Shown: piece after piece, positions 3,001 through 6,257 of the stretch
Position numbering within the stretch: position 1 is the first letter of the stretch
Layout: each line of letters begins with the position of its first letter
Source: a virus
Lineage: Duplodnaviria; Heunggongvirae; Uroviricota; Caudoviricetes
IMG/VR virus record: IMGVR_UViG_2645727970_000006
Reading direction: 5' to 3' (one strand)
Length of the DNA: 6,257 nt
Made by a program: the position numbers

Positions 3001-6000
3001 GCCTTTGCTGGTGGCCCGTATGCGCAGCCACAGTTCTGAATATTACCGTGAGATCGTCGAACGGAGGGATCGGCTGGTGAAGGATGTCGATGATTTTGTT
3101 GCGTCAGCGGTTGTTTTGTATGACCAGATGAATCGCGGCGGCCCGGCAGGGAATGCTGTGGTGATGCACTAAAAGCACGGTGTTCGGGGGTTTTATGAGC
3201 AGCAAGCTTCATGGTCTTGTCTGGGAAGGGTGCGCCTTCACCGGCATGATCTTATCCAGGGTGGCGGTTATGGCCCGTCTTGCAGACTACAGCAATGACG
3301 AGGGCGTGTCATGGCCTGCCATTGAAACTATCCGGCGTCAGATCGGTGCAAGAAGTGAATCCACAGTGAAATCGGCTATTGCAGAACTGGCGAAAGAGGG
3401 CTGGCTGACGAAGGAAGAGCGTAAGGTCGGTGGGCGTAATGTAAGCAATATCTATCGGCTTAATGTGGAAAAACTCGAAGCAGCTGCGGCGGCGGCGCGT
3501 GAGTCATATAAACCGAAAAGAAAAATTAGCCCGGCAAAAAATGACCCGTTAACAGTTGACCCGTCAAATTTTGATGGATCAACTGTTGATAAAAAACTGC
3601 CGATTAGGGGGGCGATGATTGACCCCGATCCGTCAGTATTAAAACCTGATCCGTCAGATAAAAGATCTTCTTGTCCGGACGCTTCGCAACCGGACCCGCA
3701 GACGGCTGAACAGGATTTTTTAACCCGACACCCTGACGCGGTTGTGTTCAGTGCGAAAAAACGCCAGTGGGGAAGTCAGGAAGATTTGGTGTGCGCACAG
3801 TGGATCTGGGGACGAATCGTGAGTCTTTACGAGCAGGCGGCCAGCGATGATGGCGAGATCACTAGACCGAAAGAACCCAACTGGACAGCATGGGCCAATG
3901 ACGTTCGCACAATGCGGATGCTGGATGGCAGAACTCACAGACAAATTTGTGAAATGTTTGGGCGTCTCCAGCGGGATTCGTTCTGGGTAAAAAACATCAT
4001 GAGTCCGGCAAAACTCCGGGAAAAATGGGATGAACTGGTTATCCGCCTGGGGCGTTCGCCTGCGCAGCGTTGCGTGAATCACATTTCTGAACCGGACACT
4101 GAAATACCGCCGGGATTCAGGGGGTGACGTGTCATGAAAAACATTGCGGCAGTTGGGGTTCTTGAACGTATTCGCAGACTTGCACCACAGGGGTCGGTTC
4201 CACCGTACCGGACGGTGGAGGAGTGGCGGGAATGGCAACTTGCTGAAGGACGAAAACGCAGCGAGGAGATTAACCGCCAGAATCGCCAGTTGCGGGTGGA
4301 AAAAATCCTGAATCGTTCGGGCATCCAGCCTCTGCACAGCAAATGCTCGTTTGCAAATTATCAGGTGCAGAACGACGGGCAAAAATACGCGCTGAGCCAG
4401 GCCAAATCCATAGCTGACGAACTGATGACCGGGTGCACGAATTTTGTGTTCAGCGGTAAAACCGGCACCGGGAAAAATCACCTTGCAGCGGCGATGGGCA
4501 ACCGGCTGATGGTGAAGGGGCGCAGCGTGATTATCGTCACCGTGTCTGACGTCATGAGCGTGTTGCATGACAGCTACGACAACGGCAAATCCGGGGAAAA
4601 ATTTTTACAGGAGCTTTGCGGGGTTGATTTGCTGGTCCTGGATGAAATAGGCGTTCAGCGGGAGACGAAAAACGAGCAGGTGGTATTGCACCAGATAATT
4701 GATCGCCGGACAGCATCACTGTGCAGTGTCGGGATGTTAACAAACCTGAATCATGCCGCAATGAGTACGCTTCTTGGTGAGAGGATTATGGACCGCATGA
4801 CCATGAACGGTGGTCGATGGGTGACGTTTAACTGGGATAGCTGGCGTCCAAATGTCAGCAATATGAGGGTTGTGAAGTAATTTTGTCCGGAGGAAATTTT
4901 AATGGAAACCGTATCTGACGCACTGAAAGCACTGAAAAAAGCCTCTTCACATGTGGTGGCAGCTCGCCTTGGAATCAGTCGTGAAGAGGCTGTCAACGAG
5001 CTGTGGGAACTCAAAAGAAATGGCGTCGTTGATAAAACTGGTCACACCTGGTTTCTGGCTGGCGAAGGTGAATCCCGGGTAACCGAAGAGCGGCCAGTAA
5101 AATCTGAAGCACAGGATATGCTGACCGGGGAGGTCGAACAAAAAGTTACCGCAGACATGATGATTGAGTTTATCGGTCAGGATGGGGCTAAAACGTGTGA
5201 GGAACTGGCGGGTAAGTTCGGTGTCAGTACTCGCAAGGTTGCTTCCACGCTGGCGGTGGTAACCGCAACGGGGCGGCTGGCACGCGTTAATCAGAACGGT
5301 AAATTTCGTTACTGCATGCCGGGCGATAATTTACCAGCAGAGCCGAAAGCCGCGCTGGTAACGGAAAGTGATGGTAAGGCCTTTCCTCAGCCAGCAGGTG
5401 CTGCGTTACCAGGCCGGGAAGCCGCAACACAGGAAGAAATTAAAACAGAAACTGTGGCGGACATTGTGCAGTCGTTGCCATCGTTTACCGAAACGCAAGC
5501 AGATGAGCTGATTTTTCCGTCCCTGCGCAGGGCAAACCTGGCGCTGCGCAGGGTGAAAAGTGATGTTCAGAAGTGGGAGCGAGTCTGCGCCGCGCTGCGG
5601 GAGCTGAACAAGCACCGGGATATTGTTCGACAGATTACTGATTCTTCCCGCCGTGTTGTATCGGAAAAGTGATTGCCGGAGGCGCTTATGGCAAAAGTAT
5701 TTACACAAGAAGAGCGGGAAAAAATTAAAGGGCAGGTTGTTGAGCTAGTACGCCGGAGTGGGCGCGAGACGTTACGGCAACTGGAAGCCAAGACAGGTGC
5801 GACAAGATATCTGATGAGTGTTCTCGCCAGAGAGCTGGTTGCCAGTGGCGATGTATACAACTCTGGTTACGGGTTATTCCCGTCTGAACAGGCGCGTAAG
5901 GACTGGCAAAACGCCCGCAAAAAACTCTCAAGGGCAAATCTGAAGAAACCATCTGTGGTTGATCCTGACCTTATCTGGCCATTACCAGACGGAGAAATAC

Positions 6001-6257
6001 GCCGCTACGACAGGCGTCAAAACATAATCTGTAGCGAGTGCCGGAAGAGCGAAGCTATGCAGCGTGTACTGGCTTTCTATCAGGGTAATTTTCAGAAGGT
6101 GCTGTTGTGAGCCAAATTAACAATCGGAACTTCGTGAAGAGAAAGCATAATCCAAATCGGTGATGTTGCCAACTTACTGATTTAGTGTATGATGGTGTTT
6201 TTGAGGTGCTCCAGTGGCTTCTGTTTCTATCAGCTGTCCCTCCTGTTCAGCTACTGA

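Follow-up and report, generated by a model that had tools for sequence, protein, structure and literature searches.

The window, i.e. the whole stretch of 6,257 nucleotides that was analysed, belongs to an Escherichia coli Rac/Qin-type lambdoid prophage. Two of its ORFs, here called gene 1 and gene 2, were studied (Table 1). They follow, on the same strand, cro, a YdaT-family gene at the cII position, an O-like gene and a DnaC-like gene, in this order; by analogy with lambda, the run from cro to gene 2 probably corresponds to the early rightward (pR) operon. Both ORFs lie directly 3' of the replication genes, which is the position of the lambda ren/nin region (in lambda, ren comes straight after O and P). 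This placement had already been proposed in a preliminary description of the DNA and agrees with the gene order seen in the window; the two ORFs and the three peptide stretches quoted from them are likewise present where it located them. For gene 2, the ATG at 5688 is the best start, and the identical 140-aa product is annotated in RefSeq.

In the region 4700-6257, the number of terminator-like sites did not exceed that in shuffled sequences. Promoter-like sites in the same region were found only at 6144-6193, near or within an IS1 end. Repeats in the region 4800-6257 were short and present in two copies only, and repeated operator-like DNA was not found nearby.

Table 1. Positions of gene 1, gene 2 and their parts in the window
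Feature	Coordinates	Strand	Basis
Gene 1 ribosome-binding site GGAGG	4889..4893	+	Read from sequence; 8 nt 5' of ATG 4902
Gene 1, 256-aa YdaW-family protein	4902..5672	+	ORF; Pfam DUF1627 (PF07789), PHROG 630
Module A, residues 1-56, acidic probable winged helix	4902..5069	+	AF2, hhalign, conservation
Module B, residues 84-141, predicted basic winged helix-turn-helix	5151..5324	+	AF2, Foldseek, PDB profile
Acidic Pro/Ala-rich linker, residues 142-204	5325..5513	+	pLDDT, net charge
Basic C-terminal helix, residues 205-256	5514..5669	+	AF2, net charge, conservation
Gene 2 ribosome-binding site GGAGG	5678..5682	+	Read from sequence; 5 nt 5' of ATG 5688
Gene 2, 140-aa Ren-family protein	5688..6110	+	Pfam DUF977 (PF06163), PHROG 142
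Module C, residues 1-66, predicted basic winged helix-turn-helix	5688..5885	+	AF2, Foldseek, Kinch et al. 2009
Ren signature motif NIICSECRKSEAMQRVLAFY, residues 112-131 of gene 2	6021..6080	+	BLASTP vs lambda Ren

Family membership of gene 1 and gene 2

The preliminary description had assigned neither gene to a known family. This proved incorrect, as gene 1 matches DUF1627/PHROG 630 and gene 2 matches DUF977/PHROG 142, all far above the cut-offs. The match of gene 1 to Pfam DUF1627 (322.1 bits, cut-off 28.1, E 6e-97) joins residues 91-245 to profile positions 1-155 of 155, and its match to phrog_630 (E 1.1e-131) extends over the full length, with residues 1-252 placed on a 253-position profile. 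Judged by these profile matches, gene 1 is a full-length member of the YdaW family (PHROG 630). Its product is named 'DUF1627 domain-containing protein' in RefSeq.

The layout of gene 1, consisting of module A, module B, linker and basic helix, is kept in 36 homologues of 22-65% identity. Module A, which the Pfam DUF1627 model leaves out, is the most conserved portion of the family; its residues L34 and W50 are invariant across 37 diverse homologues. The acidic Pro/Ala-rich linker and the basic helical tail noted in the preliminary description were both confirmed. The linker has a net charge of -8 and an AF2 pLDDT <50, and the tail (net charge +8, family mean +5.8) is modelled by AF2 as a single helix spanning residues 206-255 (pLDDT 67-79). 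A conserved (I/L)P.F(T) motif, represented by SLPSFT at residues 192-197, is located at the linker end, while the other linker sequence and the linker length vary in the family. In the C-terminal helix, an EIRR(T/A)K...LE.(L/V)R pattern is conserved. PHROGs 29124 and 1888 contain this helix as well, alone or together with module A.

YdaW of the K-12 Rac prophage (b1361) is 55% identical to gene 1 over residues 1-154, comprising modules A and B, and is encoded at the same position, after the DnaC-like gene ydaV. However, the K-12 protein (186 aa) has no similarity to gene 1 past residue 154 and lacks the linker and the basic helix, whereas gene 1 in the window is of full length. As ydaW is followed by the rzpR pseudogene in K-12, a deletion in that strain is suggested.

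As for gene 2, the match to Pfam DUF977 (107.9 bits, cut-off 22.1, E 5e-31) extends over residues 1-136 of the protein and the complete profile (positions 1-134 of 134). Phrog_142, called 'Ren-like exclusion protein', was matched over the full length both by gene 2 (E 6e-48) and by the 96-aa lambda Ren (E 1.6e-41). The product is named 'DUF977 family protein' in RefSeq, and 'LygF' or 'Ren-like exclusion protein' in phage records. BLASTP aligned residues 112-131 of gene 2 with residues 73-92 of lambda Ren (NIICSECRKSEAMQRVLAFY and NLVFKECRQSAAMKRVLAVY, respectively) at 60% identity and E 1e-6; in gene 2, this motif falls within a C-terminal domain modelled by AF2 with low confidence. By hhalign, the whole of gene 2 was colinear with Ren (Prob 79%, E 1.7e-5), with an insertion of ~35 residues in gene 2. 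The shared PHROG 142 and the colinear alignment including the motif indicate, at the level of sequence, that gene 2 (LygF/DUF977) is a true, longer homologue of lambda ren and does not merely occupy the ren position.

Lambda Ren and gene 2 have in common an N-terminal basic winged helix, the C-terminal motif ECR.S.AM.RVLA.Y, a pI of 9.9 and the position of their genes directly 3' of the replication genes. They differ by 44 additional residues in gene 2, with an inserted helix and linker at about residues 65-102. Moreover, lambda Ren is undetected by Pfam DUF977 at E <= 1, and BLASTP detects no pairwise identity beyond the motif. Foldseek searches against the PDB and BFVD gave generic winged-helix matches only, with none at E <= 0.001, and lambda Ren was absent from the 50 listed matches. 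A PDB profile search from a shallow gene 2 alignment gave nothing meaningful. A related-locus search with lambda Ren yielded copies of 99-100% identity only, which made no deeper profile possible.

The three predicted winged-helix modules

In the preliminary description, three copies of a winged-helix-like module were reported. The modules themselves are supported, B and C by their AF2 topology and A as a probable case, but the term 'copies' is not, since they are divergent and of opposite charge. For module C (gene 2, residues 7-64), AF2 gave an H-b-H-H-b-b topology with pLDDT >90, composed of H7-24, b, H29-36, H40-53 and a short hairpin (57-64). Kinch et al. 2009 (PMC2686095) had already described DUF977 as a winged helix, and the top Foldseek matches of module C in the PDB were all winged-helix proteins (best E 2.6e-2, none at E <= 0.001). 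The same topology was modelled for module B (gene 1, about residues 84-138) with pLDDT 70-79, the elements being H84-94, b, H99-106, H110-123, E127-131 and E134-138. MarR, ArsR, Z-alpha, AF2008 and AspA winged helices were among its Foldseek or PDB-profile matches, and its family profile, compared with solved winged helices, matched ADAR1 Z-alpha/Z-beta (E 1.2e-5), AF2008 and AspA. In an Enterobacter homologue, module B exceeded the Pfam HTH_24 cut-off, and it was module B that matched the Ren-like phrog_142 (E 4e-6) when the whole gene 1 protein was searched. The Foldseek probabilities of modules B and C to winged-helix proteins were 0.99-1.0, at E values of only 5e-3 to 1e-1. Both modules are predicted to be winged helix-turn-helix domains.

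For module A (gene 1, residues 1-56), the AF2 model has helices 4-11, 16-23 and 27-39 with pLDDT 55-65 and no wing. All of its Pfam matches stayed below the cut-offs; almost every one was to a wHTH or another HTH family, the best being HTH_Crp_2 with 23.2 bits (cut-off 27). A wing-like G...G.W.L pattern is conserved. With a low-confidence model and sub-threshold matches, module A is a probable winged helix. In the AF2 model, a low-confidence linker of ~27 residues lies between modules A and B. The mean net charge is -2.3 for module A and +3.7 for module B, and module C is basic.

BLASTP gave no alignment for A-B and A-C, and only E 0.05 for B-C. By hhalign, modules A and B were aligned with Prob 91% and E 1e-6 over 53 columns in register, at 11% identity. 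When profile scores were compared with the maximum of 100 column-shuffled controls, all pairs scored higher (A-B 32.3 vs 20.9, B-C 21.5 vs 14.1, A-C 16.6 vs 14.4), from which we conclude that the three modules probably have a common fold and that their relationship exceeds chance. Each module also matches generic winged-helix Pfam families about as strongly as the other two modules. We regard modules B and C, and probably A, as divergent winged helices which resemble each other at the fold level, and not as close or recent repeats. The profile scores, together with the match of module B to the Ren-like PHROG and to the lambda Ren winged helix, might also be read as signs of a recent duplication of one unit, producing a repeat family over two genes; gene 1 and gene 2 would then share one function. 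We regard this as highly improbable in view of the BLASTP results, the low A-B identity, the equally strong matches to generic families and the opposite charges. Furthermore, gene 1 homologues of 22-30% identity likewise carry the two modules, which makes any duplication ancient.

The H-b-H-H-b-b fold is that of MarR, ArsR/SmtB, GntR, IclR, the Crp C-terminal HTH and the ADAR1/ZBP1 Z-alpha domain, and it is among these domains that Foldseek, the PDB profile and, below threshold, Pfam found their best matches. Unlike these generic families, the modules lack dimerisation or effector domains, and Foldseek found none of the families at E <= 0.001. MarR-type membership was not supported, with Pfam MarR and MarR_2 below cut-off and the modules being isolated domains of 55-65 residues. 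Z-alpha membership was rejected as well. Its contact residues in ADAR1 are Asn173 and Tyr177 (helix 3) and Trp195 (wing). In a HMMER alignment of module B to ADAR1, the two positions taken as those of the helix-3 contacts are both Ala in the module B consensus, leaving an aromatic residue in the wing alone in common. Among tandem winged-helix chains, the SelB C-terminus, ScpB and UFL1-DDRGK1 were aligned by Foldseek over 144-159 gene 1 columns, but with an rmsd of 13-15 A, i.e. the single domains match while their arrangement does not. Pfam DDRGK remained sub-threshold against gene 1 (22.1 bits, cut-off 27.8). Finally, membership in a PADLOC defence system was rejected: gene 2 had no match, and gene 1 only matched Csa3 and a CARF-family model at E 1.4e-3, which amounts to weak winged-helix similarity.

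Gene 1 and gene 2 as separate cassettes

We examined 80 IMG/VR loci containing gene 2 at >=90% identity. A gene 1 homologue (46-100% identity) was present upstream of gene 2 in 50 of them. In the other 30, gene 2 came straight after the O-like gene, with neither gene 1 nor the DnaC-like gene present, and in half of these (15/30) the O-like gene was 96-97% identical to that of the window. In phage records, the pair occurred in 12, gene 1 alone in 12 and gene 2 alone in 12; a contig scan with a narrow search pattern returned 8 loci only. Related prophages carry gene 1 or gene 2, with or without the partner, always just 3' of the replication genes, although these vary (O/DnaC-like, DUF1376/DnaC-like or P-like). 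Gene 1 and gene 2 are independent, separately inherited cassettes and not a functional pair.

A strict tie of gene 1 to the phage helicase loader was rejected, as gene 1 directly follows the O-like gene in some loci and, in one locus, the DnaC-like gene is directly followed by gene 2. The two genes share one reading frame in the window, separated by TGA and 15 nt. Nevertheless, programmed read-through was also rejected, because in about 9 of the 50 paired loci the end of gene 1 lies one base further 5', which places the genes in different frames. Gene 1-gene 2 fusion proteins were encountered in two single-contig ENA sequences (Gly codon replacing the stop; frameshift).

Possible functions of the two genes

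From family, fold, charge, position and cassette pattern, all of which were observed, we infer each step of the following functional reading, to which we assign a probability of roughly 0.6. Gene 1 and gene 2 would be separately inherited, non-essential accessory genes which occupy the 'ren slot' in a lambdoid prophage of the Rac/Qin type. Because of its homology to lambda Ren, gene 2 most likely acts as reported for that protein, so that the early development of the phage and its replication are shielded from abortive exclusion of the Rex type. It comprises the basic winged helix, which would likely bind DNA or exclusion proteins, the inserted helix and, in its C-terminal part, the conserved motif of Ren. 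The Ren phenotype, described by Toothman and Herskowitz in 1980, is reportedly growth despite RexA/RexB exclusion. No rexAB genes were found in the window, so a Rex-type target, if any, would sit in another prophage. Rex proteins are reported to show two-hybrid interactions with lambda O and Ren (bioRxiv 10.1101/2021.04.19.439022).

Gene 1 most likely encodes an early nucleic-acid-binding adaptor which modulates a host or defence factor, and not a core replication protein. Its acidic winged helix (module A) would likely offer a protein-contact surface and its basic winged helix (module B) would likely bind nucleic acid; following the acidic, disordered linker, the long basic amphipathic helix may serve in oligomerisation or as a second nucleic-acid contact. 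In an overexpression screen described in a preprint (bioRxiv 10.1101/2020.06.22.160242), K-12 ydaW emerged as a hit blocking the toxicity of RcaT of retron-Sen2. This gene is the gene 1 homologue in truncated form, with modules A and B retained. The DNA-binding accessory or exclusion functions proposed in the preliminary description remain a reasonable guess; the family assignments do not refute them, since neither is to a family of tested mechanism.

Two other roles were weighed against this accessory reading. Gene 1 and gene 2 might be sequence-specific transcription factors which regulate delayed-early/late phage genes or host genes via their winged helices. The structural and profile neighbours are indeed MarR, ArsR, GntR and IclR regulators, module B and gene 2 are basic, and in PMC9308461 K-12 YdaW is listed as an E. 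coli transcription factor whose function is unknown. We nevertheless find such a role unlikely: the modules are bare winged helices of 55-65 residues without the dimerisation or ligand domains of regulators, the recognition-helix position in module A is acidic, the nearby DNA lacks repeated operator-like sequence, and the genes are gained or lost as cassettes beside near-identical neighbours. Quite unlikely, in our opinion, is an auxiliary role in replication at the phage origin, alongside the O-like initiator and the helicase loader, although the location directly 3' of the replication genes, whatever the type of initiator or loader, would be in accord with it. The 15 loci in which a nearly identical O-like gene is followed by gene 2 without gene 1 speak against this role, as does the occurrence of either gene without the other. 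In addition, the identity of gene 1 varies between 46 and 100% beside gene 2 copies that are at least 90% identical, which argues against tight co-evolution of the pair. Both roles are at odds with the scoring of lambda ren as non-essential (PMC10695390).

Beyond the accessory role, it is conceivable, if rather doubtful, that the YdaW and Ren families together form a widespread early counter-defence class in enterobacterial lambdoid phages. By binding the triggers of abortive-infection systems (nucleic acid or protein; Rex in the case of Ren, retron-Sen2 in that of YdaW), their proteins would mask the replication intermediates of the phage.

For both proteins, annotated counterparts of 98-100% identity exist in hundreds of E. 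coli genomes; the genes are ordinary, already known members of catalogued Pfam/PHROG families. Of modest value are the recognition of the LygF/DUF977 gene as a lambda ren homologue and of the two genes as independent cassettes; in the YdaW/DUF1627 family, a conserved acidic N-terminal winged-helix-like module missed by the Pfam model can be added. If the counter-defence role were true, the slot 3' of the replication genes would be a locus directed against abortive infection, and the mechanism of Ren might be approached via its many natural variants, with a bearing on what Ren does.

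Family assignment of the two genes

The 256-aa protein (gene 1) belongs to the YdaW family and the 140-aa protein encoded next to it (gene 2) to the Ren family, an identification to which we assign a probability of about 0.95. Gene 1 scored 322 bits against Pfam DUF1627 (cut-off 28.1) and matched PHROG 630 over its full length (E 1e-131). Gene 2 scored 108 bits against Pfam DUF977 (cut-off 22.1) and matched PHROG 142, 'Ren-like exclusion protein' (E 6e-48); phage records name it LygF or Ren-like, and RefSeq annotation gives the same products for both genes. The preliminary description, whose quoted peptide stretches were all found in the window, had placed the genes in no known family, which these assignments do not bear out.

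Relatives of gene 1 formed only 151 clusters in an exhaustive representative search. YdaW of the K-12 Rac prophage (186 aa), whose gene follows the DnaC-like ydaV, shares 55% identity with residues 1-154 of gene 1; beyond residue 154 there is no similarity, and YdaW lacks the tail. All 36 full-length relatives (22-65% identity) have identical architecture, and shorter forms occur in PHROGs, i.e. module A plus tail, module B plus tail, A alone or tail alone. Two proteins from the cluster search, P0241 and P0258, are chimeras: their N-terminus is that of a DUF1376/YdaU-like replication protein, continued by gene 1 sequence starting with residue 56 (P0241) or 163 (P0258). Deletion in decaying prophages is their probable origin. 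A gene 1 homologue with 84% DNA-level identity to this E. coli prophage was also present in PP818812.1 (Actinobacillus phage vB_Apl-pPE4, 10084-10806), which is unexpected for its host, as the record attributes the phage to Actinobacillus pleuropneumoniae.

As for gene 2, lambda Ren (from J02459) itself matched PHROG 142 over its full length (E 1.6e-41). The two proteins share a motif, NLVFKECRQSAAMKRVLAVY / NIICSECRKSEAMQRVLAFY (BLASTP E 1e-6), and are colinear except for an insertion of about 35 residues in gene 2 (hhalign Prob 79%, E 1.7e-5). From this, gene 2 is a ren homologue in the ren position.

Prophage setting and cassette behaviour

The window covers the region for immunity and replication in a Rac/Qin-type lambdoid prophage of E. 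coli. Positions 1-6158 are 99.8% identical to E. coli chromosomes, where the matching prophage is integrated beside potC/potD. The product in the cII position is of the YdaT family, as in Rac, unlike lambda-type CII, and both gene 1 and gene 2 are preceded by a GGAGG ribosome-binding site.

Features of the window
Feature	Position	Strand	Match
DicF antisense sRNA gene	569-620	-	Rfam RF00039, 76.7 bits (gathering score 48)
LexA/S24-type repressor	1769-2542	-	
Cro	2535-2750	+	
YdaT-family protein, cII position	2747-3172	+	Pfam YdaT_toxin, E 2.8e-10
O-like initiator	3180-4127	+	HTH_36
O-like residues 295-315	4062-4124		NCBIfam NF002770, positions 159-179/179, E 0.004
DnaC-like ATPase	4134-4880	+	
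DnaC-like gene plus gene 1	4134-5672		
Gene 1, 256 aa	4902-5672	+	DUF1627, PHROG 630
TGA + 15 nt between genes 1 and 2	5670-5687		
Gene 2, 140 aa	5688-6110	+	DUF977, PHROG 142
Terminal ~100 nt of IS1	6159-6257		IS1-like features

The DicF gene lies on the same strand as dicB and ydfC homologues, and together they are the mark of a Qin/Rac-type immunity-left region. The last 21 residues of the O-like protein (...PDTEIPPGFRG) show weak similarity to the very C-terminal end of primosomal protein DnaT. At the other end of the window, the best chromosomal matches end at 6158, and the remainder taken by itself is found in more than 5000 plasmids at 95% identity or above, under 'IS1-like family transposase' features; in this strain, IS1 has accordingly been inserted some 50 nt past the downstream end of gene 2.

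Among 80 IMG/VR loci with gene 2 at 90% identity or above, 50 carried a gene 1 homologue (46-100% identity) immediately upstream. The other 30 contained neither gene 1 nor the DnaC-like gene, the O-like gene being followed directly by gene 2. In half of these (15 loci; L023, L028, L029 and similar), an O-like gene 96-97% identical to that of the window was separated from gene 2 by 43 nt, so that no helicase loader is encoded there in those prophages. As a unit, gene 1 and the DnaC-like gene behave like an insertion/deletion cassette. Where the O-like gene was otherwise undetectable, conservation of its last 20 codons remained at 95-100%, pointing to a possible recombination junction.

GenBank phage records contained the pair, gene 1 only and gene 2 only in 12 cases each; PPompW phages have gene 1 only, after a P-like gene. 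Further gene 1 relatives, from Escherichia ruysiae, E. albertii, Enterobacter and Serratia, always followed replication genes, and were themselves followed by a STAND-like NTPase, a Lar-like protein or others. In two Serratia prophages (L173, 3441-4001; L174, 3528-4001) an extra protein of 157-186 aa precedes the gene 1 homologue; its match to 'late promoter-activating protein' is weak and stays below threshold (PF25716, 25.9 bits, cut-off 35). Given their separate occurrence and differing neighbours, gene 1 and gene 2 occupy a variable slot as cassettes independent of each other, a pattern that speaks against a core role in replication and an obligate two-gene system alike. The two genes do share a reading frame, and two single-contig metagenome proteins fuse them, through a sense (Gly) codon at the stop position in P0002 and a frameshift in P0004. 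These fusions look like errors or rare mutants, because the shared frame is not kept in all paired loci.

Winged-helix modules, linker and tail

The preliminary description had proposed three copies of a winged-helix-like module, here A (gene 1 residues 1-56), B (gene 1 residues 84-138) and C (gene 2 residues 7-64), an observation that is largely real. With alignments of close homologues as input, AlphaFold2 predicted a confident winged helix for C (pLDDT above 90), followed by a helix (67-86) and a low-confidence C-terminal domain. B was modelled as a winged helix at moderate confidence (pLDDT 70-79), and residues 4-39 of A as three N-terminal helices without a wing, at low confidence (pLDDT 55-65). 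Foldseek matched both models in the PDB to winged-helix proteins only (MarR, ArsR, GntR, IclR, Z-alpha, and the tandem winged helices of SelB, ScpB and UFL1-DDRGK1), with probabilities near 1, yet with no match at E <= 0.001; BFVD gave a likewise generic picture. DUF977 has been recognised as a winged helix, and its fusions to Fic domains have been seen (PMC2686095).

The profile of the 36 full-length gene 1 members matched solved winged helices through module B, with ADAR1 Z-alpha/Z-beta (E 1.2e-5) followed by AF2008 and AspA. Two helix-3 positions, which we take to be the Z-alpha contacts Asn173 and Tyr177, are Ala in the module B consensus. B of an Enterobacter mori homologue exceeded the Pfam HTH_24 cut-off, and sub-threshold Pfam matches of A in 30 family members fell almost entirely in wHTH or other HTH families. 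In our reading, two winged helices are securely predicted and the third is probable.

Modules A and B align over 53 columns in register (hhalign Prob 91%, E 1e-6). All three pairs scored higher than every one of 100 column-shuffled controls (A-B 32.3, highest shuffled 20.9; B-C 21.5 and 14.1; A-C 16.6 and 14.4), a lenient control, as shuffling destroys helical periodicity. Pairwise BLASTP among the modules found nothing significant, and their charges differ: A carries an acidic mean charge of -2.3 across the family, with -1.6 at the recognition-helix position, B is basic at +3.7, and gene 2 and Ren are basic proteins with a pI of 9.9. From these comparisons we infer a winged-helix kinship at superfamily level; the modules are not copies in the sense of recent repeats.

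The acidic linker and basic helical tail noted previously were confirmed by charge count and by the model. Residues 142-204 of gene 1 are Pro/Ala-rich and disordered (charge -8; 143-204 in the model), and 205-256 are basic (+8) and helical, residues 206-255 being modelled as a single long helix. Two elements of this region are conserved across the family, a short (I/L)P.F(T) motif and an EIRR(T/A)K...LE.(L/V)R helix.

Possible functions

According to Toothman and Herskowitz, ren reportedly conferred resistance to Rex exclusion (1980). In two-hybrid assays, interactions of Rex proteins with lambda O and with Ren were reported, in a study that termed ren 'likely involved in DNA replication' (bioRxiv 10.1101/2021.04.19.439022); ren has been marked as non-essential, from earlier literature (PMC10695390). 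K-12 ydaW was recovered in an overexpression screen as a blocker of retron-Sen2 RcaT toxicity (bioRxiv 10.1101/2020.06.22.160242), and YdaW is listed among transcription factors of unknown function (PMC9308461).

In our reading, both are probably early, dispensable accessory proteins. We can only tentatively propose a mechanism, and consider it somewhat less probable than even. By analogy, gene 2 may act like Ren in counter-exclusion, and gene 1 could serve as a nucleic-acid-binding adaptor whose acidic winged helix probably binds protein. In themselves, the two genes are ordinary and widely annotated members of families of unknown function.
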